IMG/VR virus record: IMGVR_UViG_3300043468_000417
Location: 1-60,364 of that record
DNA from: a virus
Lineage: Duplodnaviria; Caudoviricetes
DNA length: 60,364 nucleotides
Direction: 5' to 3' (one strand)
Below the pieces are notes generated by a model. That model ran no database searches and was not told where the DNA came from. It was given only the letters and a program-made list of their open reading frames with translations. Both the position numbers and the translations under genes were made by a program. The number at the start of each line of letters is the position of its first letter. Within the stretch, counting starts at the first letter, position 1. This document shows positions 2,567 to 53,424 of the stretch, in pieces.

Positions 2567-2578
2567 ATACCTACCCTT

Positions 2579-3139: not shown

Positions 3140-3166
3140 TTCCTCCTTTAGAGATAACGAACTATA

Positions 3167-3209
3167 ATAGTAGCATTACTTGACAGTAGGTGTCAAGCTA
3201 GTCAACCAG
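3167..3209. promoter_or_regulatory. Divergent promoter region
   Basis: TTGACA-N5-TGTCAA (3180-3196); minus strand TTGACA-N18-TACTAT with extended TG; CTAGTCAACCAG at 3198-3209. Confidence 0.6.
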
Positions 3210-3219
3210 AAAGATTAAA

Positions 3220-4203
3220 ATGGAAATATCATATTCTACGCCTAGATCCAACTTGACAACCAAGAATGGTTACGGTCACGCTGGATTTAAAGTAGCAGAA
3301 TGTCTAACTAAAATGGGTCATAGATTAACTTATCAGAACCCTAAAGCTAAATTACAAATTAATTTTTCACAACCTACAAATTATAAATTACATAGAAATC
3401 AATATCAGATTGGTTATACTCCATGGGAATCAACAGTTATTCCAGAATCTTGGAGAGAAAGAATAGATTCTTGTGACGAGTTTTGGACAACATCTCAATG
3501 GTGTAAAGATGTATATGAGAATAATGGATTTAAGGTATCTAATGTTTTCCCGCATGGCATAGATCCAATGTGGTCACCTAAAAAGCGAGAGTATACAAAT
3601 GTTGTAAAGTTCTTACATGTTGGCGAACCAGCAGAAAGAAAAGGCGGACAAGATACAGTAAACGCATTTATAAAAGCGTTTGGTAATAATCCTAATTATA
3701 CATTAACAATAAAGGCTCATAAGTCTAGCGTTCTAAGGGTATACGATAGAGAGGGAAGCATTCTTGGACTTCCCCACGAAATGTATAGTAATATTAAATT
3801 AGATGAAAGAGAATTAGAAGATAACGAGTTGGTAGACATGTATCATCAACATGATGTTATGATCTATCCTACTTATGGAGAAGGATTCGGATTCATTCCA
3901 TTTCAAGCACTTGCAACAGGCATGCCAGTTATATCAACATACGAATGGGCAGACTATAAAAAGTATCTAGGTCCTCTAAAGTTAAACTCTACACTTATAG
4001 ATTCTCCTTGGAATGTGATGCATCCTGGAAAAGTTTACAAGCCAGATAGCAATCATTTAGTTAATTTGATAGAAGATGCTGCAGCTAATTTTAAAGCATA
4101 CTCTGGATATTATTATGCTCAGTCAACTGAAATACATAAAGAATATAATTGGGATCAGTTGACTAATAAAGCTTTTGAAGAAGTATTTAAAAAAATATCA
4201 TAA
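3220..4203 (+). CDS. GT-B fold (GT4-like) glycosyltransferase
   Basis: GYGHAG, FLHVG...RKG, EGFGFIPFQALATGMPVI. Confidence 0.88.
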   Translation: MEISYSTPRSNLTTKNGYGHAGFKVAECLTKMGHRLTYQNPKAKLQINFSQPTNYKLHRNQYQIGYTPWESTVIPESWRERIDSCDEFWTTSQWCKDVYENNGFKVSNVFPHGIDPMWSPKKREYTNVVKFLHVGEPAERKGGQDTVNAFIKAFGNNPNYTLTIKAHKSSVLRVYDREGSILGLPHEMYSNIKLDERELEDNELVDMYHQHDVMIYPTYGEGFGFIPFQALATGMPVISTYEWADYKKYLGPLKLNSTLIDSPWNVMHPGKVYKPDSNHLVNLIEDAAANFKAYSGYYYAQSTEIHKEYNWDQLTNKAFEEVFKKIS

Positions 4204-4290
4204 CCCCTTCCCCTTTGGATTAAAGTTTGGTAGAATTGGACTTCAACTAAAATTATAAACCGCAAGGCGGAGAAAAGGTGTTATTTAAAA

Positions 4291-6225
4291 ATGTCAAGAA
4301 CTATTGAAAACCCATACGAAAACTTTATTGCATTGTCACGTTATGCAAGATGGATATCAGAAGATAACCGTCGTGAAACATGGGGTGAAACAGTAGATAG
4401 ATATTTTGATTTTATGACAGATCACCTAAACAAAAATCACTCATACGTGCCAGAGGAAAAACTTCTTAAAGAATTAAAGGATGCAGTTTATAATCGCAAT
4501 GTAATGCCATCAATGAGATCAGTGATGACTGCAGGTGCTGCATTAGATAGAGATCATGTTGCAGGCTATAACTGTTCATTTGTTCCAGTAGACTCACCAC
4601 GTTCATTTGATGAAACAATGTATATCTTGATGTGTGGAACAGGTGTTGGTTTCTCTGTAGAATACAAGTATGTTAATAAGCTTCCTGCCGTTCCAGAAGC
4701 ATTTGAAAAGTCTACAACCGTAATTGTTGTTGAAGATTCTAAGACTGGATGGGCAAAGGCTTATCGTGAACTACTTGCCATGTTATGGGCAGGACAGGTT
4801 CCAGCAATTGATGTAAGTAAACTACGTCCAGCAGGTGCACGTCTTAAGACAATGGGTGGTCGCTCATCAGGTCCACAACCATTAATTAATTTATTTGATT
4901 TTACAATTGCAAAGTTTAAAGTTGCAGCAGGTCGTCAGCTAAAGCCTATTGAGGCACACGATATTATGTGCAAAATTGGAGAAGTTGTAGTAGTTGGCGG
5001 AGTTCGTCGTTCTGCAATGATTTCACTTTCTAATATTAATGATATTGAAATGGCTCAGGCTAAATCAGGTAACTGGTGGGAAAACAATTCACAACGTGCT
5101 CTTTCAAATAACTCTGTTGCGTATTCTCGCAAACCAGAGATGGAACAGTTTATTGCAGAATGGAAATCACTATATGACTCAAAGTCTGGCGAACGTGGAA
5201 TCTACAATGTTGCAGCAGCCCAAAAGCAGGCAGCTAAATATGGACGAAGGGACCCTGAAGTACATTATGGAACCAACCCTTGTTCAGAAATTATTCTCCG
5301 TCCTTATCAGTTTTGTAATCTTTCAGAAGTCGTATTACGTGAAAAGGATACAAAGAAAGATATCGAAAGAAAAGTAGAGCTTGCTACAATTCTTGGTACA
5401 TGGCAAGCAACTTTAACAGACTTTAAGTATCTTCGTAAAATTTGGAAAGATAACACAGAAGAGGAACGCCTACTAGGAGTTTCTCTAACTGGACAATTTG
5501 GGCATAAGTTTATGTCGGGTAAAGAAGACCTAGTTTCTCTGGAAGCATTTCTAATGTCTTTAAGAGAAAAGGCAAGAGAAGTAAATACAGAAGAGGCTGG
5601 GAAAATTGGGATTCCACAGTCTGCCGCTATTACATGTGTAAAGCCTTCAGGCACAGTATCTCAATTGGTCGGGGTGTCTTCAGGAATGCATGCCTGGCAT
5701 TCTCCATATTATATTCGTACAGTTCGTGGTTCAAAGGGGGATCCAATCTCTACATTTTTGAAAGAAGTTGGAATTCCAGTAGAAGATGATGTAATGAAGC
5801 CAAATGACACATACGTCTTTTCGTTTCCAGTAAAAGCACCAGAAGGTGCAATTGTCAGAAATGATTTAACAGCAATTGAGCATTTAAATATTTGGCTAGT
5901 TTACCAACGTGCATGGTGTGAGCATAAGCCATCAATTACAGTTTCAGTTAAAGAAGATGAGTGGATGGAGGTTGGCGCTTGGGTATATAAGCATTTTGAT
6001 GAAGTATCAGGTATTTCATTCCTGCCACATTCAGATCACTCATATAAACAAGCTCCATACCAAGAAGTTTCTAAAGAAGAATATGAAAATCTGCTTTCTA
6101 AGATGCCTAAGAGCATTCGTTGGGAAGACTTATCTTTTTATGAAACAGAAGATGGTACAAGCGGAACACAGACCCTTGCCTGTACTTCAGATGGAAATTG
6201 TGAGATTGTAGACATTTCCGCTTAA
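4291..6225 (+). CDS. nrdJ: Class II adenosylcobalamin-dependent ribonucleotide reductase (monomeric RTPR type)
   Basis: YNC, GGVRRSA, GTNPCSE, FCNLSE, KPSGTVSQL, C-terminal ACTSDGNCE. Confidence 0.93.
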   Translation: MSRTIENPYENFIALSRYARWISEDNRRETWGETVDRYFDFMTDHLNKNHSYVPEEKLLKELKDAVYNRNVMPSMRSVMTAGAALDRDHVAGYNCSFVPVDSPRSFDETMYILMCGTGVGFSVEYKYVNKLPAVPEAFEKSTTVIVVEDSKTGWAKAYRELLAMLWAGQVPAIDVSKLRPAGARLKTMGGRSSGPQPLINLFDFTIAKFKVAAGRQLKPIEAHDIMCKIGEVVVVGGVRRSAMISLSNINDIEMAQAKSGNWWENNSQRALSNNSVAYSRKPEMEQFIAEWKSLYDSKSGERGIYNVAAAQKQAAKYGRRDPEVHYGTNPCSEIILRPYQFCNLSEVVLREKDTKKDIERKVELATILGTWQATLTDFKYLRKIWKDNTEEERLLGVSLTGQFGHKFMSGKEDLVSLEAFLMSLREKAREVNTEEAGKIGIPQSAAITCVKPSGTVSQLVGVSSGMHAWHSPYYIRTVRGSKGDPISTFLKEVGIPVEDDVMKPNDTYVFSFPVKAPEGAIVRNDLTAIEHLNIWLVYQRAWCEHKPSITVSVKEDEWMEVGAWVYKHFDEVSGISFLPHSDHSYKQAPYQEVSKEEYENLLSKMPKSIRWEDLSFYETEDGTSGTQTLACTSDGNCEIVDISA

Positions 6226-6292
6226 AGGGTATATAATAAAGATTGGGGTAAAACCCAAAATTCCTGGGCACACGGCCCAGAAATAAGGAGGA
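6209..6292 (+). promoter_or_regulatory. Promoter plus two-hairpin 5' leader
   Basis: TAGACA-N17-TATAAT (6209-6237); TTGGG-GTAAAA-CCCAA and CTGGGC-ACACG-GCCCAG; AAGGAGG RBS. Confidence 0.6.
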
Positions 6293-6298
6293 TCTAAA

Positions 6299-6529
6299 TT
6301 GGCAACAAAAGAAGATCTTAACAATGATGGAAAGGTAACTATGCAAGAGAAAATTCTAGCAGCGTTAGCAAGCTATGGTCGTCACTTTTTAGGTGCGGCT
6401 ATTGCTCTTTACATGACTGGAAATACTGACCCAGGAGACCTAATCAAGGGTGGTATTGCGGCTTGTCTACCAGTTATTTTGAAGGCACTTAATCCAAATG
6501 AAAGTTCATTTGGCTTTACAAAGAAGTAA
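6299..6529 (+). CDS. Small two-TM membrane protein, putative holin (TTG start)
   Basis: Two hydrophobic segments, KALNPN..FG and basic C-terminus. Confidence 0.55.
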   Translation: MATKEDLNNDGKVTMQEKILAALASYGRHFLGAAIALYMTGNTDPGDLIKGGIAACLPVILKALNPNESSFGFTKK

Positions 6530-6542
6530 AATTCAGTAAGTA

Positions 6543-6589
6543 ATTAGGACGGCTCCTATGCTAAAATGAGCATAGGAGTTTTCCTATTT
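6543..6589 (+). terminator. Strong hairpin, probable terminator, with an extended -10 in its loop region
   Basis: CTCCTATGCT/AGCATAGGAG 10-bp stem then TTTT; TGCTAAAAT at 6559-6567. Confidence 0.6.
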
Positions 6590-6603
6590 AGGAGATTTAG
6601 CAA

Positions 6604-6951
6604 ATGGCAGGTCAAAAGAATTGGGAAGTGGATCAAAACACTACCTTCACATTTACCGTTGAATATAAAGACGACGACGGAGATCCAATCGTTCTTACAA
6701 ATTGTTCCGCAAAAATGCAGGTTCGTGATACTAAGGGTGGAAGCAAGTTAGCTTTTAGTCTTACATCACCATCAGGCGGAATACTAATAGACGAAGCCCT
6801 AGGCAAGTTAACTATTAAGATGACCCCTACTCAAACCAATAAATTATTCTATCCAAAGTCCTCATATGACATTATGCTAACTGATAGCAATTTGAATAAA
6901 ACCAAATTACTTGAAGGATTCATAACTTTGAGCAGATCGGTGACCATTTAA
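6604..6951 (+). CDS. Ig-like beta-sandwich virion anchor protein (BppU-N-like)
   Basis: DQNTTF...AKMQVR...YDIML...LLEG pattern typical of fibre anchors. Confidence 0.6.
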   Translation: MAGQKNWEVDQNTTFTFTVEYKDDDGDPIVLTNCSAKMQVRDTKGGSKLAFSLTSPSGGILIDEALGKLTIKMTPTQTNKLFYPKSSYDIMLTDSNLNKTKLLEGFITLSRSVTI

Positions 6952-7409
6952 TGCCAATCACTAATAATAATAGCAATCCGACAGTAGTCGTAACAGAAGA
7001 AGTTAAAAGAGTAGTTTTAAATACTCCAGGACCTCAAGGTCCTAGAGGAAAAACAATTTTGAATGGAGATGGTGTTCCAGCCGATAATCTAGGTTTCGAA
7101 GGCGATTTCTACTATGACAAACTAACAACTAGATTCTATGGCCCAAAGCCAAGTGATGCTTCTTGGACTGGGGCAACAAACTATCTACTCAGCACAAGCA
7201 CCCTTACATACCCTTTCTCAATAAATCAGGTTGTAAATGCAGGATCGTACTACTACCTTGAAATAACACATAATATGGGCTATAACCCAAATGTTACCGT
7301 CAAGAATAGCGCTGGAGATATATTAGAAACAGGAATAGACTATAATAGTATTAACAAAATTACACTGACAATGGCTCAACCATTCGGTGGGACAGCATAC
7401 CTGTCTTAA
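6951..7409 (+). CDS. Virion structural protein with short collagen motif and C-terminal HNxG domain
   Basis: GPQGPRG, GDFYYD...FYGPK, THNMGYNPNVTV. Confidence 0.65.
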   Translation: MPITNNNSNPTVVVTEEVKRVVLNTPGPQGPRGKTILNGDGVPADNLGFEGDFYYDKLTTRFYGPKPSDASWTGATNYLLSTSTLTYPFSINQVVNAGSYYYLEITHNMGYNPNVTVKNSAGDILETGIDYNSINKITLTMAQPFGGTAYLS

Positions 7410-7423
7410 GGGAGATATAGCAT

Positions 7424-8845
7424 ATGGCAAGATTATTTGTAACTGACATAAATCTGAATAAGAATGAACTTCAGAATGCCAGAATTCAGGGGCTTTCAAC
7501 AGCTCCATCTAGTCCAGTAACTGGACAAATTTATTATGATACATCAAATAACACGATGTACTACTACAATGGATTGTCATCACCAAATGGTCCATGGATG
7601 TCAATGTCTGGTTCTACAGAAGTTATTCAAGATGTTATTGGCTCAGCAGTATTAGGCGGAGTTGGATTATCAGCAACATACAATGACACAGCTGGAACAA
7701 CAACAATAGATTTAGACAATACAGCAGTAACAGCAGGCTCTTATGGTTCTTCAACAGCAATACCTACATTTACAGTAGATGCCCAAGGACGTTTGACTGC
7801 CGCAGGAACTGCAACAGTAGCAACAACTCTTTCAATTGCTGCAGAATCTGGAACAGCAGACACAGTAAATCTTCTTACAGATACTTTGACATTTGCCGCA
7901 GGCGAAGGAATCAATACAACTGTAACAGATAACACAATTACAATTGCTGGAGAAGATGCTTCTACTAGTAATAAGGGTGTTGCCTCATTCAATTCAGATG
8001 ACTTTAACACAACAGACGGACACGTAGAACTAGAAGATACTGTTGTTAAAACAGTAACAACTGATTCTGGAGCATTAACTCCATCGTCACACGGTCTATC
8101 TATCCTTGGCGGAGAAGGAATCGATGTAACTCATACTGGAACATCAATTACAGTAGCAGGAGAAGATGCAACCACAACTAATAAGGGTGTGGCTTCTTTC
8201 GCAGATGCAGACTTTACAGTAACATCTGGCGCAGTAACAATTAAAAATGTTAACCTTGCCACACAGACAACTGGAAACTATATTGCAACTATTGCTGGAA
8301 CAGCAAATGAAGTTGAGGTTTCAGGTTCTGGCTCAGAAAACTCAGCGGTAACAATTGGTCTTCCAAATGACGTAACAATTACTAATAACCTTACAGTTGG
8401 CGGTAACTTAAACGTAACTGGAACAATTAACTCAGTAAATACCACTCAGGTAAATATTGTTGACAATAAGATTAATCTTAATACCGACTTTACTGGATCT
8501 CCAACAGCAGATGCTGGAATCCGTGTAGAGCGTGGAGATGGCGCAGATGTTGAAATCCTATGGAATGAGACAAATGACAACTGGACCCTTACAAACAATG
8601 GTACAAACTATCATGCAATTGTTCGCAAGTTTGCTTCAGATATTACCACAACAGAGTCAGCACCATTTACATTTACTGCAACACACAATTTAGGAACAAG
8701 AGATGTAACAGTTCAAGTATTTGCAACTGCGTCTCCATATAATCAAATTGAGTGTGACGTAGATCATACATCTACATCAGTTGTAACACTAACATTTGCA
8801 GCAGCACCAACAGCTGGACAATATAGAGTAGTTATAACAGGATAA
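7424..8845 (+). CDS. Fibre shaft protein
   Basis: TVDAQGRLT, duplicated GEDA..NKGVASF repeat, C-terminal THNLGTRDV domain. Confidence 0.7.
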   Translation: MARLFVTDINLNKNELQNARIQGLSTAPSSPVTGQIYYDTSNNTMYYYNGLSSPNGPWMSMSGSTEVIQDVIGSAVLGGVGLSATYNDTAGTTTIDLDNTAVTAGSYGSSTAIPTFTVDAQGRLTAAGTATVATTLSIAAESGTADTVNLLTDTLTFAAGEGINTTVTDNTITIAGEDASTSNKGVASFNSDDFNTTDGHVELEDTVVKTVTTDSGALTPSSHGLSILGGEGIDVTHTGTSITVAGEDATTTNKGVASFADADFTVTSGAVTIKNVNLATQTTGNYIATIAGTANEVEVSGSGSENSAVTIGLPNDVTITNNLTVGGNLNVTGTINSVNTTQVNIVDNKINLNTDFTGSPTADAGIRVERGDGADVEILWNETNDNWTLTNNGTNYHAIVRKFASDITTTESAPFTFTATHNLGTRDVTVQVFATASPYNQIECDVDHTSTSVVTLTFAAAPTAGQYRVVITG

Positions 8846-8847: not shown

Positions 8848-9303
8848 ATGGCAAAGCAATTTAAAACACCAATTGCTCCGCCAGCCTTAAGTTCAGATCC
8901 AACAGGAACTGTTGCTGGTGAAATATACTATAATACAGTTTCTGGTGCTTTAAAGATTTATAATGGAACAACCTGGTCTTTACTAACAGGTGGAGGCGGG
9001 GGAACTTCAAATTCATTTGAAGTTTTGTCAACATCTCCAGCATCTCCATCTCAAGGAAGAGTTTATTTTGACTCTTCAGAAAATACAATTAAAGTATATA
9101 ACGGTAATATCTGGTATGATGTTGCGGGGCCAAAAGAATTATTGGATCACCAACACTATGCTGGAGAAGGACTGGTAAGGCATGTAGATTATGGACAATA
9201 TGTAGATGAGTTGAATTATATTGTTTCTATGGATGGCGGAACCGCAAGTACATCATATGCTTCTGCACCAAACAATGATATAATAGACGGAGGAGCAGCA
9301 TAG
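8848..9303 (+). CDS. Fibre connector protein
   Basis: Two GxxYY/F...KxYNGxxW motifs, ends IIDGGAA. Confidence 0.6.
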   Translation: MAKQFKTPIAPPALSSDPTGTVAGEIYYNTVSGALKIYNGTTWSLLTGGGGGTSNSFEVLSTSPASPSQGRVYFDSSENTIKVYNGNIWYDVAGPKELLDHQHYAGEGLVRHVDYGQYVDELNYIVSMDGGTASTSYASAPNNDIIDGGAA

Positions 9304-9306: not shown

Positions 9307-11454
9307 ATGGCAATTAGAATTCAGTTACGCAGAGACACCGCAGCAAATTGGACTTCATCGAATCCAGTATTGCGAGCAGGTGAGTTGGGTATTGAAACAG
9401 ATACTCTTAAATTTAAAATTGGTAATGGTTCCAGCACATGGACACAAATTACAAATTATGCAAACGTTACAAGTACAGGCTTATCAAATAGCCTAAATGA
9501 TTATATACTTTCTGCAACTAAGGGAACCCCTGGAGGACCAGCAGCACTAGATTCAAATGGCGACCTCCTTGTTCCAGAAAATTCAGTCATTCTTTGGAAT
9601 GATGCTGATTATACTTATCAAACAACAGTAAGTGCTACACAGCCTACAGCAAATAGAACAATTACTTTGCCAGATGCTACTGGAACAGTAGCGCTTACAA
9701 CAGATCTTTCCCCATATGCCCCTTTATCTGGAGCTACATTTACAGGAAACATTAGCATTCCAACAGCAATTACTTTTGAAGGCGCAACAGCAAATGACTT
9801 TGAAACAACTATTCAGGTAACAGATCCAACTGCAGATAGAACTATCACTTTCCCAGATGCAGGTGGTACAGTAGCTTTGACCACAAATATTCCTTCAACT
9901 ACAGACAATTTGTCAGAAGGATCAACAAATAAATATTATACAGATGAAAGAGCACAGGATGCCATTGCAACAGCAATTGCGGCGGGAACTCATACAAATA
10001 TAACTATCACATATGATGATGATAATAACAAGTTTACTTTTGTAGGAGCAAACACCTACTCAGATGAAAATGCACAAGATGCAGTAGGAAATGCAGTCGG
10101 CACAGGATTGTCGTATAACGACACAACTGGTGCTATATCAGTAGATACTACAGCAATTCAGGCTCGTGTAGCAGATGTTTCAGATACAGAAATTGGATAT
10201 CTAAATGGTGTTACTTCAGGAATTCAAACACAGATTGATAATAAGGCTTCATTATCTGGAGCAACATTTACAGGAGCCGTTTCTGGAACAAGCTTAACGC
10301 TTTCTGGAGACCTAACAGTTAATGGAACTACTACAACATTAAATTCAACAACAATATCTGTTGATGATAAAAATATTGAACTAGGATCAGTCGCTACCCC
10401 ATCAGATGCTACAGCAGATGGCGGCGGAATAACTCTAAAGGGAGCAACAGATAAAACTTTCAATTGGGTAGATGCTACAGACGCATGGACCTCATCAGAG
10501 CACTTAAACCTTGCTTCAGGAAAGTCACTATATTTAAACGGTACACTATTAAAGGATGCTACAGAAACTCTTACAAATAAGACACTTACATCTCCAGTTA
10601 TTAATACCCCAACTGGGATTACAAAGTCAGATGTAGGTCTTGCAAATGTAGACAATACAACAGATGCAGGAAAGCCTGTCTCAACTGCTACCCAAACAGC
10701 TCTTGATCTTAAACTTGCTTCTGCAACAGCAGCTACAACTTATGAAACAATTACTAACGTAGCTTTAAAGGCACCACTTGCTGACCCAACATTTACTGGA
10801 ACAGTAACACTTCCTTCAACAACATCAATTGGAGATGTATCTTCAACTGAATTATCTTATCTAAACAATGTAACTTCTGCAATTCAAACACAATTGGATG
10901 GCAAGGTAGATGAGTCACTATTTGATACAAAGGGAGATATTTTAGTTGCTTCCGCAGATAACACACCAGCAAAATTAGCAGCTGGAACAAACGGATATTT
11001 GCTTACAGCAAACTCAGCTGCAGCTAATGGAGTTGAGTGGGCGGCAGCACCAGTAAGTCTTCCAACTCAAACAGATAATTCAGGAAAGTATTTAACTACA
11101 GATGGAACCACAGCATCTTGGGGAACTCTAGTAGTACCAATTACAACTGGTACATCAACAGTTTCAGCAAATACAGCAACGACAATAGATACAACAGCAT
11201 TGTCAGCGTTCACATCTATTGAATATATGGTTTCATTAAAGCAGGGTTCAAAGATTAGAACATCTAAGGTAGTTGTTCAGACTGACGGAACTTCTGTAGA
11301 TATGACAGAGTTTGCAATTACAGAAACTGGAGGAACAATTGCAGGAGTAGTTGTTTCAGTCGCAGTATCTTCAACAAATGCAGTACTACAATTAACAGCA
11401 ACAGATGCAGTAACTACAAACGTAACGGTAAAATTTAGCAAAGTAGCACTTTAA
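9307..11454 (+). CDS. Fibre protein with Mtd/HylP-like N-terminal domain
   Basis: IQLRRDTAANW...GELGIETDTLKFKIG; PTADRTITxPDA repeats; C-terminal beta domain. Confidence 0.8.
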   Translation: MAIRIQLRRDTAANWTSSNPVLRAGELGIETDTLKFKIGNGSSTWTQITNYANVTSTGLSNSLNDYILSATKGTPGGPAALDSNGDLLVPENSVILWNDADYTYQTTVSATQPTANRTITLPDATGTVALTTDLSPYAPLSGATFTGNISIPTAITFEGATANDFETTIQVTDPTADRTITFPDAGGTVALTTNIPSTTDNLSEGSTNKYYTDERAQDAIATAIAAGTHTNITITYDDDNNKFTFVGANTYSDENAQDAVGNAVGTGLSYNDTTGAISVDTTAIQARVADVSDTEIGYLNGVTSGIQTQIDNKASLSGATFTGAVSGTSLTLSGDLTVNGTTTTLNSTTISVDDKNIELGSVATPSDATADGGGITLKGATDKTFNWVDATDAWTSSEHLNLASGKSLYLNGTLLKDATETLTNKTLTSPVINTPTGITKSDVGLANVDNTTDAGKPVSTATQTALDLKLASATAATTYETITNVALKAPLADPTFTGTVTLPSTTSIGDVSSTELSYLNNVTSAIQTQLDGKVDESLFDTKGDILVASADNTPAKLAAGTNGYLLTANSAAANGVEWAAAPVSLPTQTDNSGKYLTTDGTTASWGTLVVPITTGTSTVSANTATTIDTTALSAFTSIEYMVSLKQGSKIRTSKVVVQTDGTSVDMTEFAITETGGTIAGVVVSVAVSSTNAVLQLTATDAVTTNVTVKFSKVAL

Positions 11455-11468
11455 GGGGGTAATAGATA

Positions 11469-12191
11469 ATGGCAGATAAAAACTTTAAAGTTAAATCTGG
11501 ATTAAATATCCCGATTGCTTCGGCTGCAATTCTTACCACTGATTCAAGTGGTAATATATCTTCTACCGCCGTTCTTCCAATTACAGCAGGCGGAACAGGA
11601 CAAACATCAGCGACTAATGCTATAAATGCCTTGCTCCCAATTCAAAATGGATCAACAATAAACTATTCAATCCAGTCAGATGGAACAAACATCTCATGGG
11701 CTAAGCTATATAATCAGGTAATTCAAGATGCAGGAGTTTCTGTAAATCCCCGTCGAAATATAAATTTTGTAGGAGGAACATTTGCAGATAATTCAGGATC
11801 TGATACTACAACTATCACATTGCCTCCAACTCCAAAGTATCAAACATCTGCTCCATCTAGTCCAGTAGTTGGACAAATTTGGGTGGACTCAGATGATGAC
11901 GTAGATACATTTAATCCTTATATGATTAGTAGAAATAAGTTTACTGCAACTAGCGGACAGACTGAATTTGCTACAACACAAACTTTTATTCAGGGGTACG
12001 AACAAGTATTTCTTAATGGTATACTTTTGGTATATGGAGATGACTATACAGCTCCTACTACATCCTCCGTCGTTTTATCTTCTGGAGCAGCAGTCGGAGA
12101 TTCAGTAGAAATTATTATTCAAACTAATTTATCCGCATATATAGTTGAAACGCCTCTTAGGGCTTCAACATTTATGTTGATGGGGGCATAA
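11469..12191 (+). CDS. Fibre adaptor (KNFKVK N-terminus, ATxGQT domain, FMLMGA tail)
   Basis: Motifs shared with ORFs at 19267 and 21972. Confidence 0.65.
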   Translation: MADKNFKVKSGLNIPIASAAILTTDSSGNISSTAVLPITAGGTGQTSATNAINALLPIQNGSTINYSIQSDGTNISWAKLYNQVIQDAGVSVNPRRNINFVGGTFADNSGSDTTTITLPPTPKYQTSAPSSPVVGQIWVDSDDDVDTFNPYMISRNKFTATSGQTEFATTQTFIQGYEQVFLNGILLVYGDDYTAPTTSSVVLSSGAAVGDSVEIIIQTNLSAYIVETPLRASTFMLMGA

Positions 12192-12535
12192 TGGCAACAG
12201 AAGTATTTAAGATACTAGGGCAGGTAGCACCAGGAACAACTAATACAGCATTGTATACCGTTCCAACAGGTAAGTCTGCAGTCATATCAACTATTGCTGT
12301 ATGTAATCAAACATCTTCTGATGTAACATTCAGAATTGCTACACAAAAAGCAGCAGATGCCTCAACATCTACAATTTTAGCTAAACAATATATTGCGTAT
12401 GGTTCAACAGTAGCTGCCAACGACACAACATTTGTCACTATCGGAGCTACGCTTGCGGCGGGAGATCAAATAATCGTTTACGGTTCATCTTCTAGTCTTT
12501 CATTCAACGCATATGGCTCCGAGGTGACACCTTAA
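12191..12535 (+). CDS. Small beta-sandwich virion protein
   Basis: FKILGQ...LYTVP...SFNAYGSE; stop/start coupled on both sides. Confidence 0.6.
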   Translation: MATEVFKILGQVAPGTTNTALYTVPTGKSAVISTIAVCNQTSSDVTFRIATQKAADASTSTILAKQYIAYGSTVAANDTTFVTIGATLAAGDQIIVYGSSSSLSFNAYGSEVTP

Positions 12536-14085
12536 TGGGAGTAAGTAAACTAAATCCATCAGCAGGAGGAATTCCATACGGAGATACAGCAGGACGCCCT
12601 GCAAACCCAGGAACGGGAAGACTTTATTCAAATGGTGAAGAAAAGCGTTTAGAGCTTTACACATCTTCAGGATGGCAGAACATTGTTTCTGAAACTCCAG
12701 GAGTTGTTTCTGTATCAGGAAATTATCTTGAATCAACAGGCTCAGGCACAATAGAAATTACAGGTACAAATTTTACAACAGGAGCAATTGCTTCTGTTAT
12801 TGGAACAAACGGTGTTGAAGTAAATGCTAATTCAACTACTGTAAACTCAATAGTGTCAGTCACGGCGGTATTTTCAGGACTATCAAATGCTAATGAGCCT
12901 TACGATGTTAAGGTAACCAATACATCAAATCTATTTGGTTTGCTGACTGATGCTCTTTATGTTAATGCAAGCCCAGTTTGGGTAACTGCTTCAGGGTCTC
13001 TAGGTACATTTAATGAACAAGTTTCTGTATCTGTTTCTGCAACAGCAACGGATTCTGATTCTACAATTACCTATGCATTAGCTAGCGGATCTTCTTTACC
13101 TTCTGGAGTATCTTTAAATTCTTCAACAGGCGCAATTACTGGAACACTTCCAGATATTGCAACAAATACAACATACAGTTTTTCAATAAATGCCTCTGAT
13201 GGGCTAAACACAATACCAAGATCATTTAGCATACAATCTGTTGCTATGCCTGTTGCTGAAATCTTAGTCGTTGGCGGCGGTGGTTCTGGCGCTGTTGGAA
13301 ACGGTGGTTCTGGAGGAGGAGGTGCTGGAGGACTAGTTTACTCATCATCTTATGCACTACTGGGATCAGCACTAGTTACCATTGGAAATGGTGGAGCGTC
13401 TGTAAGCTCAGGCCAAACTGGACTTAATGGAGAGAATACTGTTTTTGGAAACATAACAGCATTTGGCGGAGGTGCTGGTAAGGGTTGGACTGGCGGCGGA
13501 GGAAATAGCGGTGGTTCTGGCGGAGGCGGAGGATCTGGTAGCGGTTCTTCTGCTGGAGGAGGTGCTTCAACACAAACAAGCCCATCAGGTGCAACGGGTT
13601 ATGGAAATAGCGGTGGAACTGGACACGCAAGCGGAGGCCCATATTCTGGCGGAGGCGGAGGTGGAGCTGGCGCAGTAGGACAAACTGTAACAGCAAATAC
13701 TTCTGTTGCTAATGGTGGCATTGGTCGTGCTTACAGCATTACTGGGACCTCAACATACTATGCAGGCGGAGGTGGATCTGGAACCGAAGAAGGCAATTAT
13801 ACTTCTAGCGGATTAGGAGGCTCTGGTGGGGGAGGCCGAGGTGGGTATTTAAATACTGTTGGTACTGCAGGAACTGCAAACACTGGTGGTGGTGGCGGAG
13901 GTGGCGGATATCCACTAGCTTATTACGCAAGTGGTGCGGGAGGTAGTGGTGTTGTAATTATTGCATATGCAGATACATTCCCTGCTATTACAACAATTCC
14001 TGGAACATTAACTTATACCCAACCAACACGTGCAGGGTATAGAGTTTATAGATTTACAGCAGGTTCAGGAACGGTAACATTCTAA
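12535..14085 (+). CDS. Adhesin-like protein: IPT/Ig domains plus glycine-rich domain
   Basis: GDTAGRP, ITGTNF, LPSGVSLNSSTG, VVGGGG...GGSGVVII. Confidence 0.75.
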   Translation: MGVSKLNPSAGGIPYGDTAGRPANPGTGRLYSNGEEKRLELYTSSGWQNIVSETPGVVSVSGNYLESTGSGTIEITGTNFTTGAIASVIGTNGVEVNANSTTVNSIVSVTAVFSGLSNANEPYDVKVTNTSNLFGLLTDALYVNASPVWVTASGSLGTFNEQVSVSVSATATDSDSTITYALASGSSLPSGVSLNSSTGAITGTLPDIATNTTYSFSINASDGLNTIPRSFSIQSVAMPVAEILVVGGGGSGAVGNGGSGGGGAGGLVYSSSYALLGSALVTIGNGGASVSSGQTGLNGENTVFGNITAFGGGAGKGWTGGGGNSGGSGGGGGSGSGSSAGGGASTQTSPSGATGYGNSGGTGHASGGPYSGGGGGGAGAVGQTVTANTSVANGGIGRAYSITGTSTYYAGGGGSGTEEGNYTSSGLGGSGGGGRGGYLNTVGTAGTANTGGGGGGGGYPLAYYASGAGGSGVVIIAYADTFPAITTIPGTLTYTQPTRAGYRVYRFTAGSGTVTF

Positions 14086-14489
14086 TGGCTAAAACAGTTA
14101 AAATTTGGAACGGCACAGATTGGGTAGATCTTGGAGTAAAAGCTGCTCTTCCTCCTGATTATATAGATTCTACTGCTCTTAATTCCGCCCTTGCTTCATA
14201 TAAGCAAGAAGTAAATCTTACAGTATCATCTAACATAACATTAGTGGCGGGACGCAGATATTTTGTAGATACAACAGCTGCTAGAACATTAACACTTCCT
14301 GCAAGTCCAACACTTGGACAAGAAATTGTAGTTGTAGATGCATCTGGAACAGCTGGAACATATAACATTACAATTAATTCAAACAGTGGTAAAATTAACG
14401 GAACAGTACAAAACCTTACAATTGACGTAGATGGAGCAGGCGCTTCATTAATCTATACAGGATCTGCATATGGCTGGAGGGTAGGATAA
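14085..14489 (+). CDS. Fibre adaptor (KIWNG N-terminus plus YFVDT/TLTLPASP domain)
   Basis: Paralog of 26172..26678 and of the C-terminus of 21972..22955. Confidence 0.65.
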   Translation: MAKTVKIWNGTDWVDLGVKAALPPDYIDSTALNSALASYKQEVNLTVSSNITLVAGRRYFVDTTAARTLTLPASPTLGQEIVVVDASGTAGTYNITINSNSGKINGTVQNLTIDVDGAGASLIYTGSAYGWRVG

Positions 14490-17071
14490 TGGCAATTAGT
14501 TTTTCTAGTTTATCTGGCGGTACATCATTTACAGTAGTCACATCTACAGGCGGATCTAAGACAGCCACTCTTGATAAGTCATACCCAGCAGGAACATATT
14601 TAATTGAGTCTAAAGCGTTAGATACAAACCTAGAAGTATATCTAGGAGCATCAGATGGCACCCCCGTAGGATCGGCGGTGGCAGGAGCAAAAACAGTTAC
14701 AGCTACTTCATCCTTCCTATATGTAACAACAGTAAATGCAGATGCCAATGATGCAGTTATATTTACATTAAAATCAGCAGCCTCCCTTGCAACTAAAACA
14801 GATGCAACATGGGCTCCTCCAACAATTACAGATATTACTCCAAGCGGGCTACCAAATGTAAATGACACAACAACTATTACAGGTACAAACTTTGCTTCAA
14901 ACGTAGAGGTTAAATTTAGAAAATCAGATGATTCAACATTAGTAACTCCTAAGACAACAGTTAGAGGATCTGCTACATCTATTATTGCAGGCCGTCCTGA
15001 TTCGTTTGGCCCAGGAGATGCTCCATATGACGTAATTGTCACAAATCCAACCACAACATTATCTGCATCATCGCTTAATGCGATTACATCAGGAGCTGTG
15101 CCAGTTTGGGTTACATCAACAACATTAAATGAGGCTACAATTGATACAGCATTTTCACAAACAATTTCTGCAACTGATGCAGATGGCTCATCAACAATTA
15201 CATATGCAATTGTATCTGGTGCATTTCAAACAGGATTATCATTAAATACATCAACAGGAGCAATTACTGGTACACCAACAGGTTCTGCAGGAAGTACAAC
15301 AGCTGTAATATCTGCAACAGATTCTGGTGGCAACGCAGTAAATAGAACATTTACACAAGTTATTAATCCAGCTAACTTAATTGTTGATCACCTTGTAGTT
15401 GCTGGCGGTGGCGGTGGCGGTGGTAAAAATACAGGTGGTGGCGGTGGTGCTGGAGGATACAGAACTTCTATTGGCGGAACTGCTTTAACCTTGAATTTTA
15501 ATACTGCATACACAGTGACAGTTGGTGCGGGCGGTACAGGTGGAACTTCAACAACTCAATCAAAAGGCGCCAATGGTTCTAATTCTGTATTTTCTACTAT
15601 TACTTCTTCAGGCGGCGGTGGTGGAGGTCAAGGTGTACCACCTAATGCACCTGATGCTGCCCTTAATGGACTTAATGGTGGCTCGGGTGGTGGTGGAGGT
15701 GGAACCGATTCGGGTGGTGGCGGTACTGGTGCTGCTGGTAACTCAGGTTCATACTCTCCCGTAGAAGGTTATGCTGGTGGTAACGGAAATAACGGCGCAA
15801 ATGGTGGAGGTGGCGGCGGTTCATCTGCCGCAGGTTCTAACGCAACAACAAGTGCTGGTGGTAATGGTGGAGCAGGAACTTCTAATTCAATTACAGGAAG
15901 TGCTGTTACCTACGCAGGTGGTGGAGGTGGTGGTGCCAATTCTACTGCTGGAACTGGTGGCTCAGGTGGTGGTGGTAATGGTGCCGCTGGTGGCTCTGGT
16001 GGAAATCCATCAACTCAACAGGCAGGTTCTGGTACTGCTAATAGAGGTGGAGGTGGTGGCGGTGCAGGAGGATTTGAAACACAACTTTCAGGTGGCGCAG
16101 GTGGTTCAGGAATTGTTGTATTGCGTTACGCATCAGCAACTCAAAAAGCTTCAGGCGGTAATGAAGTAACAACCGACGGTACTTATTGGTATCATACATT
16201 TACATCTTCAGGAGTTTTTAACACAACTACATCTTATGTTGCTAAAGCAACAGGTGGAACCGTAACAACTGATGGTGCCTATTGGTATCACGCATTTACT
16301 GGCTCAGGAACATTTGCTCCAACTACAAGCATTACATCTGATTATCTAATTGTCGGCGCTGGCGGCGGTGGCGGCGGATACTCAGGCGGTGGCGGTGCAG
16401 GAGGTTTCCGCACATTTACTTCTCAATCTTTAACTGCTCAGAATTACACAGTTACCGTTGGTGGTGGTGGATTAGGTTCAGCAATAAATTCTAAGCGTGG
16501 TATTAGTGGAACAAGTAGTAGTTTTAATGGTTCTACTTCAGGTGGTGGCGGAGGTGGCGGTTCTGGTGAATCGGGAGAAGGTAATGGCTCCGCTGGCGGT
16601 GCTACAAATGGTTCAGGCGGCGGTTCAGGTTATTTAGGTTCAGGTGGTGCAGGAAACGGCACAGGGGGTTCAGGTGGTAGCGGTATAAACTCTGATGGTT
16701 ATCCAAGCGGTGGCGGTGGTGGCGCCAATGGTAATGGAGGTAACGGTTCAGGTAGTGGTTCAAGTTCAGCTGGTGGTAACGGCGGCGCTGGTTTATCAAC
16801 CGCTATTTCAGGTGGTTCAACAACAGGACTAGGACAACTCTCAAGCGGCAGTTATTACTTTTCAGGCGGCGGTGGTGGTGGTTCAGGAAATCCTGGACCT
16901 GGAACTGCTGGAACTGCTGGACTTGGTGGCGGTGGAACAGGTGGAAGATTTGGTTCAACTGCTCCTACTAATGGTACTGCAAATACAGGCGGTGGCGCTG
17001 GCGGAGGTGGCGCAACAAACCCTGGTGCTAATGGCGGTTCAGGAATAGTAATCATTAGATACCCAGTATAA
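14489..17071 (+). CDS. Adhesin-like protein: IPT/Ig plus two tandem glycine-rich domains
   Basis: Two VxAGG/GAGG...GSGIV units; YWYHxFT motif twice. Confidence 0.75.
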   Translation: MAISFSSLSGGTSFTVVTSTGGSKTATLDKSYPAGTYLIESKALDTNLEVYLGASDGTPVGSAVAGAKTVTATSSFLYVTTVNADANDAVIFTLKSAASLATKTDATWAPPTITDITPSGLPNVNDTTTITGTNFASNVEVKFRKSDDSTLVTPKTTVRGSATSIIAGRPDSFGPGDAPYDVIVTNPTTTLSASSLNAITSGAVPVWVTSTTLNEATIDTAFSQTISATDADGSSTITYAIVSGAFQTGLSLNTSTGAITGTPTGSAGSTTAVISATDSGGNAVNRTFTQVINPANLIVDHLVVAGGGGGGGKNTGGGGGAGGYRTSIGGTALTLNFNTAYTVTVGAGGTGGTSTTQSKGANGSNSVFSTITSSGGGGGGQGVPPNAPDAALNGLNGGSGGGGGGTDSGGGGTGAAGNSGSYSPVEGYAGGNGNNGANGGGGGGSSAAGSNATTSAGGNGGAGTSNSITGSAVTYAGGGGGGANSTAGTGGSGGGGNGAAGGSGGNPSTQQAGSGTANRGGGGGGAGGFETQLSGGAGGSGIVVLRYASATQKASGGNEVTTDGTYWYHTFTSSGVFNTTTSYVAKATGGTVTTDGAYWYHAFTGSGTFAPTTSITSDYLIVGAGGGGGGYSGGGGAGGFRTFTSQSLTAQNYTVTVGGGGLGSAINSKRGISGTSSSFNGSTSGGGGGGGSGESGEGNGSAGGATNGSGGGSGYLGSGGAGNGTGGSGGSGINSDGYPSGGGGGANGNGGNGSGSGSSSAGGNGGAGLSTAISGGSTTGLGQLSSGSYYFSGGGGGGSGNPGPGTAGTAGLGGGGTGGRFGSTAPTNGTANTGGGAGGGGATNPGANGGSGIVIIRYPV

Positions 17072-17138: not shown

Positions 17139-17519
17139 ATGGCACATTTCGCAGAAATCGACGAGAACAATATAGTTACTCGTGTTCTAGTAGTAAACGA
17201 CGCCGATGCAGCTGATGGACAGAATTTTCTGGCTAACACCTTGGATCTTGGCGGAACATGGATTCAAACCTCATACAACACTTCAGGTGGCGTACATGCA
17301 AATGGCGGGACCCCGCTAAGAAAGAATTATGCAGGAATCGGATATTCATACGACTCAGTTCGTGATGCATTTATCCCACCAAAGCCTTTCGCTTCATGGC
17401 TACTAAATGATGACACATGTCTTTGGGAAGCCCCAACACCAATGCCTGTTGAAGAAGGCAAGATGTTTAGATGGGTAGAAGAAGATTTAAACTGGCAAGA
17501 AGTAGTAATCGGAGAGTAA
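17139..17519 (+). CDS. Conserved phage protein associated with Gly-rich fibre genes (possible chaperone or cap)
   Basis: MAHFAEID...WIQTSYN...RKNYAGIG...DAFIPPKP; AAGGAG RBS. Confidence 0.7.
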   Translation: MAHFAEIDENNIVTRVLVVNDADAADGQNFLANTLDLGGTWIQTSYNTSGGVHANGGTPLRKNYAGIGYSYDSVRDAFIPPKPFASWLLNDDTCLWEAPTPMPVEEGKMFRWVEEDLNWQEVVIGE

Positions 17520-17524: not shown

Positions 17525-19267
17525 TTGACAAGAGCTAGAGACGTTGCCAACGTACTCTCAACCGCCACTAGTTTAGCGACGGATACAGAGACTGCGGCAG
17601 CTATCTCTAGCCACAATTCTGCAACAACTTCAGTTCACGGTATTTCAGATACAGCAGGATTAGCAACACAAACTTATGTTCAAAATAACAAAGGAATAAA
17701 TAAAGGCAATACTGCCTCACGCCCTGCTTCTCCTGCAAATGGAGATTTATATTATAATACAGAAACATCTGTACTTGAAGTATATGATGGAGGATGGTGG
17801 ATTCCAAATACCGCTCCAGGAATTCCTACATCACCAGTTGCAACAAATCAACCTTCATCACGAGCATTTAATAACGGACAAGCCTCAGTAGCATTTACTC
17901 CCGCAACAAGCGGCGGAAAAGCAACATCATTTACAGTTACTTCAACACCAGGCTCATATACAAATACAGGTTCATCTAGTCCTATCGTAGTTACTGGTTT
18001 ACAATCAAACACAGCATATACTTACGCAGTTACAGCAACTGGACCACTTGGAACATCTTCTGCATCATCTGCGTCTAGCGCAGTAACTGCAACTACTGTT
18101 CCACAGGCTCCAACTATAGGTACGGCTACACCAGGAAATGGATCTGCAACAGTTGCTTATACAGCAGGTGCAACAGGTGGCTCAGAAGTTACCACATTTA
18201 CTGCAACATCAAGCCCAGGGGGATTGACAGGTACAGGATCGTCTCCGATCACAGTTTCAGGATTAACAAATGGAACTTCTTATACTTTTACAGTCACAGC
18301 AACAAACACTAATGGAACATCAGCAGCAAGCTCTGCAAGTAGTTCAGTTACACCAATATCTGCCATAGCTGTTAATTATTTAATTGTTGGTGGTGGAGGT
18401 TCGGGTTCTGTGGCTCCAGTTAATAACGGTGCAGCAGGTGGAGGTGCGGGTGGATATAGAACATCTGTTGCTGGAGGAGTAATATCTGCAGGATCATCTT
18501 TGTCTTTATCAGGTGGCACAACATATACAATAACTGTAGGTGGTGGTGGTGCTGGAGGAACAAAGAGTTCTAATGGTGGTGGTGGATCCGCTGGTTTTGG
18601 AAATAGTGGAACAAGCTCATCTATATCTGGTACTGGATTAACTACAATTACAGCAAATGGTGGCGGTGGTGGCGCACCACAAGGTGGTAATGGCTTATCA
18701 GGCGGTTCTGGCGGTGGTTCAAACCAAGGAAGCGCAGGAGGCAGTGGTAATACGCCATCCACAACACCAGCACAAGGAACTAATGGTGGAAACTCATCTG
18801 GTGACGGTGGCGGAGGCGGCGGAGGCGCAGCACAAGCAGGTAACGTTACTACTGCTCCATCTGGTGATAGTCCTGGAAGCGGTGGTAATGGAGATTACAA
18901 TAATTTAACTAATGCAACATCTACTGGTCAATTATCTGGAGGCAATTACTATGTAGCAGGCGGCGGTGGTGGTGCAGGATACGGTGGCAATTCTGGATAT
19001 GGCAATGGTGGTCTAGGCGGAGGCTCACAGGGACACGCAAGAGCAAGTTCTCCAACTGCAAATGGAGCTGAAAACACTGGTGGAGGCACTGGTGGCGCAG
19101 GAGGAACAACAGGCTCAGTAAATATTTCAGGTAATGGTGGTTCTGGTGTAGTAATACTAAGAACCTCAGATGCAGTTTCAACAGCATCTTCATATACTGG
19201 AACATTATTTACAACTGGTGGATTTAAATATTATAAATTTACAGGAACAGGGAGTATAACCTTCTAA
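17525..19267 (+). CDS. Adhesin-like protein: MTRARD N-terminus, 2x FN3, glycine-rich domain (TTG start)
   Basis: GLQSNTAYTY and GLTNGTSYTF FN3 strands; paralog of 24439. Confidence 0.75.
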   Translation: MTRARDVANVLSTATSLATDTETAAAISSHNSATTSVHGISDTAGLATQTYVQNNKGINKGNTASRPASPANGDLYYNTETSVLEVYDGGWWIPNTAPGIPTSPVATNQPSSRAFNNGQASVAFTPATSGGKATSFTVTSTPGSYTNTGSSSPIVVTGLQSNTAYTYAVTATGPLGTSSASSASSAVTATTVPQAPTIGTATPGNGSATVAYTAGATGGSEVTTFTATSSPGGLTGTGSSPITVSGLTNGTSYTFTVTATNTNGTSAASSASSSVTPISAIAVNYLIVGGGGSGSVAPVNNGAAGGGAGGYRTSVAGGVISAGSSLSLSGGTTYTITVGGGGAGGTKSSNGGGGSAGFGNSGTSSSISGTGLTTITANGGGGGAPQGGNGLSGGSGGGSNQGSAGGSGNTPSTTPAQGTNGGNSSGDGGGGGGGAAQAGNVTTAPSGDSPGSGGNGDYNNLTNATSTGQLSGGNYYVAGGGGGAGYGGNSGYGNGGLGGGSQGHARASSPTANGAENTGGGTGGAGGTTGSVNISGNGGSGVVILRTSDAVSTASSYTGTLFTTGGFKYYKFTGTGSITF

Positions 19268-20991
19268 TGGCCAATAAAGATTTTAAGGTAAAAAATGGGT
19301 TAGATATCCAGACTCCCCTCCCTGTTTCTATGGGCGGAACTGGACAAACCTCTACTACTAATACCCTAAATTCTTTACTACCGTCCCAAGATGGAAACAA
19401 TAATAAAGTTCTAGCAACAGACGGAACTAATACAACCTGGGTGGCACAATCAGTTGCATATCAAAGAGGCGGAACAGCAAGTAGACCAGCATCTCCTACA
19501 GCAGGAGATCTTTATTATAATACTGATAACAACTACTTTGAAAGCTACACAGCAAATGGTTGGTTTCCAATTGCTGCCGCTCCTGGAATTCCTACATCTG
19601 TTGTAGCAACTAACCAGCCATCTGGCAGAGCATATAATAATGGAAAAATGTCTGTAGTATTTTCTACAGCAACAAATGCAGGAGCACCAAGTTCTTTTAT
19701 AGTTACCCCAACTCCTACTACATCTCCAACAACATTTACTGGATCTTCTAGTCCAATTGAAGTAACAGGGTTAGCTTCTAGCACACAATATACTTATACG
19801 GTTGTTGCAACTAGTCCATATGGCACATCATCTGCTTCATCTGCCTCAACAGGAGTAACTGCAACTACAGTGCCACAGGCACCAAGTATAAGCGCTACAG
19901 GTGGTAATGCACAAGCAACAATTACAATTACACCAGGTGCAACTGGTGGTTCAGAAATTACTGGATATTCAATTATTTCAAACCCAGTTACAACAACAGA
20001 AACCACTTCAAATACAACTTATACATTTACTGGTTTAACAAATGGAACATCTTATACATTTACAGCAACAGCAACAAATGCTAACGGAACATCAGCGGCA
20101 AGTTCTGCATCTAACTCAATTACACCAAACGTTACAGGTATTGGATATTTGTATGGAGGTAGCTCTGTATCAACAATAAATAGATTAAACTTTGCTACAG
20201 ATTCTTACTCTACTTTATCTGCTACTGCGCCAGCAGCAATCGGTTCAGGCGCTGGTAGTGCAAATTCTGGAGTTGCAGGATATGCTTATGGTGGCTATGA
20301 ATCAAATTGGACTGATAGAATAGCTAAACTTACATTTTCGGGAGAGACTGTATCAACAATATCGGCAACTATTGCTACTGCCGTGTATGGCAATGCATCT
20401 TTTTCAAATAATGGAACAGCGGGATTTACAGTAAATGGGCATCAAGGAAGTTCATTTTTAGATCAAGTAAATAAATTAAATTACTCAAATGACACTAGGT
20501 CGCTAGGCGGAACAATGGGACCACTATACTTAACAAGTGGAATATCTAATAAAGGATCCGCTGGGTATACAGTAGGTGGATATAGTTGGGGACTAGGTTT
20601 CCCGAATAGAGTTTATAAGTATACATTTTCCAACGATACTGGATCCTTATTGGGAACAACCTATGCGGTAGCTGCGTATAATATTGTTACTTGGGAAAAT
20701 GATGGAACTGCTGGTTATGCTGCTGGTGGTGGAGATATGATGCATACTGGTGTACACAAAATGCCATTCTCAACTGATACAATATCTAGCGCAGTAGCAT
20801 CATTAGCACAAGGAGGAGACTGGGGAGGCGGATTGTCAAGGAGGGGTAACGCTGGATACTATTGTTTAGGTAGAATTAATGTAAATACTACATCTAAGTT
20901 TTTATTTGCAACAGATACAAGAAGTGAAGTTGGTGGAACTTTAACTACTAGAAGTGGCATACTTTCAATGTCTAATAACGGAGTATTTTAA
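19267..20991 (+). CDS. Adhesin-like protein: KDFKVK N-terminus, 2x FN3, Kelch-like six-blade propeller
   Basis: Six G[YF]xxxG blade repeats in the C-terminal half. Confidence 0.7.
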   Translation: MANKDFKVKNGLDIQTPLPVSMGGTGQTSTTNTLNSLLPSQDGNNNKVLATDGTNTTWVAQSVAYQRGGTASRPASPTAGDLYYNTDNNYFESYTANGWFPIAAAPGIPTSVVATNQPSGRAYNNGKMSVVFSTATNAGAPSSFIVTPTPTTSPTTFTGSSSPIEVTGLASSTQYTYTVVATSPYGTSSASSASTGVTATTVPQAPSISATGGNAQATITITPGATGGSEITGYSIISNPVTTTETTSNTTYTFTGLTNGTSYTFTATATNANGTSAASSASNSITPNVTGIGYLYGGSSVSTINRLNFATDSYSTLSATAPAAIGSGAGSANSGVAGYAYGGYESNWTDRIAKLTFSGETVSTISATIATAVYGNASFSNNGTAGFTVNGHQGSSFLDQVNKLNYSNDTRSLGGTMGPLYLTSGISNKGSAGYTVGGYSWGLGFPNRVYKYTFSNDTGSLLGTTYAVAAYNIVTWENDGTAGYAAGGGDMMHTGVHKMPFSTDTISSAVASLAQGGDWGGGLSRRGNAGYYCLGRINVNTTSKFLFATDTRSEVGGTLTTRSGILSMSNNGVF

Positions 20992-53419: not shown

Positions 53420-53424
53420 TATAA

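Follow-up and report, generated by a model that had tools for sequence, protein, structure and literature searches.

A β-prism motif divided between two phage fibre proteins: a candidate donor-strand-like joint

Background

How phages combine numerous receptor-binding proteins in a single branched apparatus has been worked out for only a few models, in which assembly proceeds via gp10-like domains. The fibre genes of a tailed virus (Duplodnaviria; Caudoviricetes), the 60,364-base IMG/VR record IMGVR_UViG_3300043468_000417, raise the question of whether a different kind of joint might be encoded there. This record was analysed in its entirety (positions 1 to 60,364) and is referred to below as the window. 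Eight of its proteins contain a motif of about 36 residues within a single chain; two others, g11469 and g21972, contain only the first part of this motif, while g14085 and g26172 begin with the part that these two lack. An initial annotation had proposed that the domain is completed in trans, forming a branch joint analogous to donor-strand complementation in pili. All the open reading frames (ORFs) named in it are present, all on the plus strand. Taking the evidence from sequences and structural models together, we estimate a probability of roughly 60% that g11469 and g21972 (the acceptor proteins) and g14085 and g26172 (the donor proteins) complete a split β-prism in trans; this donor-strand-like joint would be a new form of phage fibre branching.

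Results and discussion

Fold and affinities of the intact motif

A hidden Markov model (HMM), built locally from the intact window copies and searched against the 51 window proteins, recovered nine full-length copies in eight proteins (independent E-values 9.5e-17 to 6.7e-21). These lie on the plus strand in g7424 (7493-7600), g8848 (two copies, 8887-8991 and 9025-9132), g12535 (12586-12693), g17525 (17711-17818), g19267 (19474-19578), g22940 (23003-23110), g24439 (24652-24756) and g26663 (26723-26830). The initial annotation had named g7424, g8848 and g17525 as carriers, which they are, but its list was incomplete. In an alignment of 68 N-terminal intact copies from the window and related loci (A3), Gly16, Arg21, Gly28, Asn33 and Trp47 are invariant and Pro22 is nearly so. 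The copy in g12535 (residues 18-53), which served as the modelled reference, was predicted by AlphaFold2 (AF2) with a predicted local distance difference test (pLDDT) of 83.8 to form three strands, at residues 30-33, 38-43 and 46-49.

A profile of the 68 copies searched against the Protein Data Bank (PDB) matched, over positions 11-50, chain residues 582-623 of the tailspike protein TSP3 of phage CBA120 (E=0.0035 and 0.004 for 6NW9 and 5W6F); a phmmer search of the PDB with g8848 gave no useful match, and the profile search was needed to reach TSP3. The same protein ranked top in a Foldseek search with the model of the intact motif (38% identity, root-mean-square deviation (rmsd) 1.4 Å over 40 columns, E=0.056), and VIA-align placed model residues 13-51 on TSP3 583-623 (Z 5.0, rmsd 1.6 Å over 39 residues, 33% identity). 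According to the available text of PMC6517402, the D4 subdomain of TSP3 is a three-stranded antiparallel sheet, three copies of which form a β-prism II with Asn, Trp and Pro at its core. The intact motif shares with it the proline-rich lead, the three-stranded antiparallel sheet and the conserved Asn, Trp and Pro residues that make up the prism core in TSP3. By both sequence and fold it belongs to the known TSP3-D4 type of β-prism II, and by analogy with TSP3 it probably serves as a mini trimerisation domain. Unlike the TSP3 domain, which is C-terminal and occurs in one kind of chain, the window motif lies mostly near N-termini and is repeated in eight proteins, and in four further proteins the domain is divided between two different chains.

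Pfam scans left the motif, the acceptor and the donor peptide unnamed, with one of the 68 intact copies giving a weak DUF2793 match (E=0.052). An assignment to Mtd_N (PF18454) was considered and rejected: none of the 68 copies matches this family at E up to 1, only g9307 does so, and hhalign aligned the motif profile with the g9307 N-terminus over just 4 columns, so that a likeness noted by eye was dropped.

Division of the motif between acceptor and donor proteins

The first acceptor protein, g11469 (240 residues; 11469-12191, plus strand), consists of an N-terminal M-A-D-K-N-F-K-V-K module, the acceptor site and a β-sandwich. It matches the HMM over model positions 3-18 only (residues 127-142), and its acceptor site (residues 124-150; 11838-11918) comprises a Tyr, the A-P-x-x-P-x-x-G lead, strand β1 (G-x-I-W-V-D) and an acidic S-D-rich exit, without β2 and β3. 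The second, g21972 (327 residues; 21972-22955, plus strand), has the same N-terminal module, an acceptor site recovered with the HMM (residues 78-104; 22203-22283) and the sandwich, after which come a linker and an XD1-like domain; here the match is confined to model positions 2-15. The donor proteins show the converse: g14085 (134 residues; 14085-14489, plus strand) matches over model positions 20-33 only (residues 3-16) and g26172 (168 residues; 26172-26678, plus strand) over positions 22-34, the matches starting at residue 3-5 of the proteins. The independent E-values of the four partial matches, in the order given (2.8e-4, 0.049, 0.072 and 0.99), are weak single-sequence values obtained from the window alone. 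The donor peptides span residues 1-17 of g14085 (14085-14135) and g26172 (26172-26222); that of g14085 comprises β2 and β3 with two core Trp residues in the pattern M-A-K-x-[IV]-[KR]-[IV]-W-x-G-x-x-W. The allotment of the first part to g11469 and g21972, and of the remainder to the starts of g14085 and g26172, agrees with the initial annotation. Its range of 11838-14135 also has exact limits, namely the conserved acceptor Tyr at position 124 of g11469 and the seventeenth residue of g14085. Its description of two halves needs amendment, as the motif has three strands in the AF2 model and is split into lead plus β1 on the one side and β2 plus β3 on the other, which are not equal halves.

Alignments of the acceptor (A1) and donor (A2) segments were assembled by regular expressions and compared with the intact motif using hhalign. 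Acceptor positions 19-35 fall on intact positions 19-35 (E=0.0037) and donor positions 3-16 on intact positions 37-50 (E=0.037); the two alignments are complementary, with no overlap and a single residue between them, and the first three donor residues correspond to the end of the β1-β2 turn of the intact motif. The conservation of acceptor Tyr17 and Ala21 is unaffected by the selection with regular expressions. Both donor genes start with an ATG that overlaps the upstream stop codon by one base (TAATG), and in each case the upstream gene encodes a glycine-rich fibre protein with a conserved C-terminus. A frameshift or an upstream start supplying the first half of the motif to g14085 or g26172 was excluded by in-frame stop codons and by the content of the upstream sequence.

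Outside the motif, the β-sandwich that follows the acceptor site of g11469 (11922-12122; AF2 pLDDT 82-94) resembles the N-terminal domains of T7-like phage fibres and TSP4 XD1 in Foldseek searches. Residues 242-326 of g21972 (22695-22949) match chain residues 89-174 of the TSP4 structures 7RFV, 7REJ and 7RFO (E=2.4e-4 to 8.4e-4), and the TSP4 XD1 domain extends over residues ~80-178 in the available text of PMC8825819. The PHROG tail-spike and gp34-type families match both g14085 (residues 46-134; 14220-14486) and g26172 (residues 84-168; 26421-26675), and the g14085 domain is 46-49% identical to that of g21972. These similarities suggest that the C-termini of g14085, g21972 and g26172 adopt a T4 gp10/TSP4 XD1-like fold.

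Acceptors and donors in related viruses

Scans of viral contigs yielded 73 loci for g14085 and 18 for g11469. The g14085 matches yielded 71 ORFs; 36 begin with the donor peptide, and the others have different N-termini or are large proteins. Between the donor peptide and the XD1-like domain lie very varied linkers, made of collagen-like G-x-T or other repeats, and the donor proteins range from 116 to 393 residues in total length. On the acceptor side, 29 distinct segments with a sandwich domain after them were recovered, in host proteins of 222 to 1262 residues with differing N-termini.

Among 84 viral contigs, 35 encode both elements, 39 neither, 9 the donor only and 1 the acceptor only. The 39 contigs with neither element are those whose XD1 proteins have other N-termini. 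In 8 of the 9 donor-only contigs the donor lies no more than 3.3 kb from the contig end; for the ninth (L021) an acceptor was predicted beyond the edge of the locus and was found 3.3 kb upstream in the whole record. The acceptor-only locus (L085) has an atypical site; a regular acceptor-donor pair is encoded in another part of its record. For every donor with sufficient flanking DNA an acceptor is present, at a distance of 1.5-6.2 kb on the upstream side. A separate metagenome scan, which used the donor peptide among its patterns, revealed an acceptor in all 11 cases in which the DNA upstream of the donor extended for 6.5 kb or more, and in 9 of 51 cases with shorter upstream DNA. Acceptor to donor counts in five whole records are 3:3, 2:2, 2:2, 1:1 and 1:1, always with the acceptor first and the two alternating; the window itself has 2:2, as do L082 and L083 after correction of a miscalled start. 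A failure of the two parts to co-occur in other genomes, named beforehand in the initial annotation as an outcome that would speak against its proposal, was not seen.

Several variants of these proteins were encountered. In donor homologues from L015, L022, L025, L031, L035 and L045 the donor peptide is separated from the XD1-like domain by collagen-like repeats (G-x-T/G-P-T), an arrangement that fits a trimeric stalk of variable length. A 295-residue protein in L082 (13750-14637) opens with two tandem donor-like strands. In L019 a 769-residue protein (6197-8506) has three intact motifs and then one acceptor site in the same chain, with the XD1-like domain directly after it and without the sandwich.

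Covariation and structural models

Across 30 unique pairs, a comparison of identity matrices gave a correlation of r 0.66 between the first 17 donor residues and 34 acceptor residues (partial r 0.49); shared ancestry inflates all such mirror-tree values, and the informative part is their ranking, in which the donor peptide versus its own XD1 (0.49), the donor peptide versus the sandwich of the acceptor (0.50) and XD1 versus the acceptor (0.25) all fall lower. In one pair, from one record, N-T-A replaces the acidic D/E-S-D of the acceptor, and the donor that follows has Asn rather than Lys at positions 3 and 6.

The L085 locus contains a more divergent module (2422-8742): downstream of a 528-residue protein with a single acceptor-like site there is one gene whose product has a donor-like N-terminus, and downstream of a 481-residue protein with two such sites, both neutral instead of acidic, there are two, which lack the lysines. 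Judging from its sequences, this module probably follows the same acceptor-donor logic, and it might represent a second, looser case of charge matching.

An AF2 monomer model of the acceptor region alone (g11469 residues 108-240, 40-row alignment) contains a confident sandwich, while the acceptor site forms no hairpin and has just a short strand at 31-33, with pLDDT 62-76 there. Folding of the domain by a half-motif protein on its own, the other outcome that the initial annotation had set against its proposal, was therefore not seen in this model. The complex was modelled in a single job with three acceptor chains (g11469 residues 108-240) and three donor chains (g14085 residues 1-45). Its interface scores (ipSAE, a score derived from the aligned errors of the prediction) were 0.61, 0.61 and 0.59, versus 0.00 for the best of three controls; the mark set for this score is reached by 116 of 157 solved complexes and by 2 of 215 mismatched pairs, counts that apply only roughly to a job with its own alignments and copies. 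The predicted interface involves acceptor residues 13, 15, 17, 21-22, 25-34 and 36-38 and donor residues 1-10, 13-14 and 16-20. In the confident contacts the strands pair in antiparallel fashion with i+j=37; adding the offset of 34 between donor and intact positions in the hhalign alignment gives the register of the intact hairpin (closing pair 33:38, turn 34-37). In the model donor Trp13 packs on acceptor Ala21, Pro25 and Trp31, and one donor chain contacts two acceptor chains.

The proposed joint and its alternatives

These observations can be combined into the following scheme. In the intact motif each chain has a proline-rich lead and three antiparallel strands, and three copies would pack into a β-prism II. 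As only the lead and β1 remain in g11469 and g21972, their trimers would leave three strand edges without a partner and half the core of the prism exposed. The missing β2-β3 hairpin, with its two core tryptophans, would be supplied by g14085 and g26172, three donor N-termini inserting beside the three acceptor strands to yield one six-chain prism. The acidic residues after acceptor β1 might then lie opposite Lys3 and Lys6 of the donor. Beyond the prism the donor chains would exit as a trimer of their own, ending in the XD1-like domain, and the acceptor chains would run on into the sandwich domain; with these two continuations the joint would either pass on or branch the fibre. Gene order suggests that g11469 pairs with g14085 and g21972 with g26172. 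The trans completion put forward in the initial annotation thus gains computational support from the tiling of the fragments, their co-occurrence, their covariation and the model of three plus three chains.

A number of points weigh against this scheme. All the contigs come from related phages with syntenic fibre modules, so that neither the co-occurrence nor the mirror-tree correlations represent independent events. Both hhalign alignments cover few positions, their probabilities being 9% for the acceptor and 1.4% for the donor, and the invariance of acceptor Pro22, Pro25, Gly28 and Trp31 and of donor Met1, Lys3, Gly10 and Trp13 arises in part by construction. The complex job is unlike the calibration set of the tool, the partner pLDDT is 54-56 and the contact agreement between runs is at least 52%; the model may be rebuilding the prism from the likeness of the pieces to the intact motif, and would in that case speak for compatibility or likeness and not for binding. 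The charge-compensating pair belongs to one lineage, and when relatives of the neutral donor were sought, only two identical copies came up, which leaves the case without replication. A profile of the acceptor plus sandwich has 10124 matches at E up to 0.001 in a library of 1.84 billion proteins. The sandwich-bearing scaffold is thus widespread, yet among the 116 sandwiches in the 150 best of these matches none is directly preceded by an intact motif (39 are preceded by the acceptor form and 77 by neither form). With no such fused form among them, gene fission as the origin of the pair gains no support.

The same elements admit other explanations. The donor N-terminus might dock elsewhere, be it on the XD1-like domain, the C-terminus of the upstream glycine-rich fibre or the sandwich of the acceptor, or might cap its own trimer, in which case the acceptor site would be a degenerate, self-sufficient remnant of a prism. 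Precedent exists in the known branched complexes, where short N-terminal regions dock on gp10-like domains in the available text of PMC8825819, and the position of each donor gene directly 3' of a glycine-rich fibre gene, with a one-base overlap, points in the same direction, as does the lack of a fused ancestor of the acceptor-plus-sandwich unit among the matches inspected. Such docking does not account for fragments that tile the intact motif exactly, nor for the closer covariation of the donor peptide with the acceptor (r 0.66) than with the XD1 of the same protein (r 0.49). A self-sufficient remnant fits poorly with an acceptor that lacks the hairpin in its monomer model and retains the proline-rich lead that packs on the very Trp it has lost. 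Likewise, g11469 has no XD1 domain on which a donor could dock, yet is always paired with one, and the complex model sets the donor on the acceptor strand while its controls score 0.00. We regard this explanation as unlikely. A still less probable one holds that there is no physical link at all, and that two independently conserved elements of one syntenic fibre cassette give rise to an interface that is an artefact of their likeness. It draws on the origin of all examples from related phages, on the weak single-sequence E-values and on the warning of the modelling tool itself that a pass may reflect likeness. Mere synteny would hardly be expected to yield equal numbers of acceptors and donors in alternating order in every record counted, whether one, two or three of each are present, and to do so in host proteins as dissimilar as acceptors of 222 to 1262 residues and donors of 116 to 393. 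The 39 contigs whose XD1 proteins have other N-termini and that lack both elements, as well as the existence of the charge-compensating pair, also argue against it. Of the readings considered, completion of the split prism in trans remains the one that we favour.

Relationship to known systems and implications

Fibre or spike trimers hung on adaptors are a feature of the branched complexes of the Ackermannviridae phage CBA120 (TSP1-4) and of phage G7C (gp66/gp63.1), which are built on T4 gp10-like XD domains, and a domain matching residues 89-174 of CBA120 TSP4 (XD1) lies at the C-terminus of both the donor proteins and g21972. For the known complexes, the available text of PMC8825819 attributes docking to the trimeric XD2 and XD3 surfaces and considers XD1 a spacer. 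The joint proposed here would differ from these in being a split mini-domain, and no XD2 or XD3 was identified in the window.

In chaperone-usher pili the incomplete β-sheet of one subunit is completed by the N-terminal extension of the next; the pilin is Ig-like, one strand is donated, and a periplasmic chaperone and an usher are required. The likeness to the window proteins, in which an incomplete sheet would be completed by the N-terminus of a partner, is one of mechanism only. The window domain is modelled as a trimeric prism, each joint of which would receive two strands from each of three donor chains. Neither chaperone nor usher families were detected in 18 fibre-module ORFs scanned with Pfam or in 44 ORFs scanned with PHROGs (26 of the ORFs were scanned with PHROGs only). 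Membership in the chaperone-usher system was rejected, as the prism is not an Ig fold and these scans contain none of its families. The pilus analogy of the initial annotation thus holds for the mechanism and not for family membership, and its term 'branch joint' is an inference from the order of the domains. A literature search on strand complementation and donor strands in phage fibres returned nothing relevant.

If the proposal is correct, a 36-residue trimerisation domain divided between two proteins would constitute a different and very compact solution to the joining of fibres, and the gene sequences of uncultured phages would allow the wiring of their fibres to be predicted. A small natural tag-and-socket pair would also become available for attaching receptor-binding modules in laboratory phages. 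A wider generalisation, of which we are more doubtful than hopeful, is that split β-prism joints form an addressable plug-and-socket system that wires multi-fibre networks. Each virion might then have 1-3 orthogonal pairs, with specificity arising from a few interface residues, including an acidic/basic or neutral/neutral match, and several sockets per protein might be possible. In that case sequence could reveal the topology of a branched fibre apparatus, and a 17-residue tag could serve to fix cargo domains to a fibre.

Genomic context and additional observations

A ribonucleotide reductase gene lies at 4291-6225 on the plus strand, and the fibre-like genes form a 23-kb block (~6.9-30 kb) on the same strand. 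A PHROG scan identified portal, protease, capsid, tape measure (2160 residues) and distal tail protein genes 3' of this block, again on the plus strand. The genome is siphovirus-like, with the fibre block (6900-30000) placed between the ribonucleotide reductase and portal genes and far from the tape measure and distal tail genes (39242-55542). Within the block, the glycine-rich proteins (PF21722) number six and contain FN3 or He_PIG domains; in addition there are a protein headed by Mtd_N (g9307) and several small ones. No annotated close relative was found in the phage collection searched, and a blastn search with positions 11000-15000 gave only an 87-base match.

The gene next downstream of one with an XD1-like C-terminus, often overlapping it, is usually a fibre gene with the intact motif at N-terminal residues ~18-57, both in the window (21972-24439 and 26172-28207) and in L008, L019 and L026. 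Examples are g21972 followed by g22940 and g26172 followed by g26663, with g14085 followed by g14489 as an exception. This order suggests that XD1 may be a socket for the downstream fibres with intact motifs.

The N-terminal module of the acceptor proteins, M-A-[DN]-K-[DN]-F-K-V-K ... G-G-T-G-Q-T, is common to g11469, g19267 and g21972, and a second conserved type, M-[ST]-R-[IA]-R-D-[IV]-A-N, heads g17525 and g24439. Both probably represent further attachment peptides. The minor tail protein g46197 (46197-48326) contains an internal stretch (residues ~175-195) that resembles the second part of the motif (aromatic-N-G-x-x-W) and is not N-terminal. A small conserved protein of ~115-126 residues (phrog_7759) recurs within the fibre modules, beside the large fibres, at 17139-17519 in the window and at 9652 in L008, 1682 in L021, 14645 in L075 and 14637 in L082, and may be an assembly factor.

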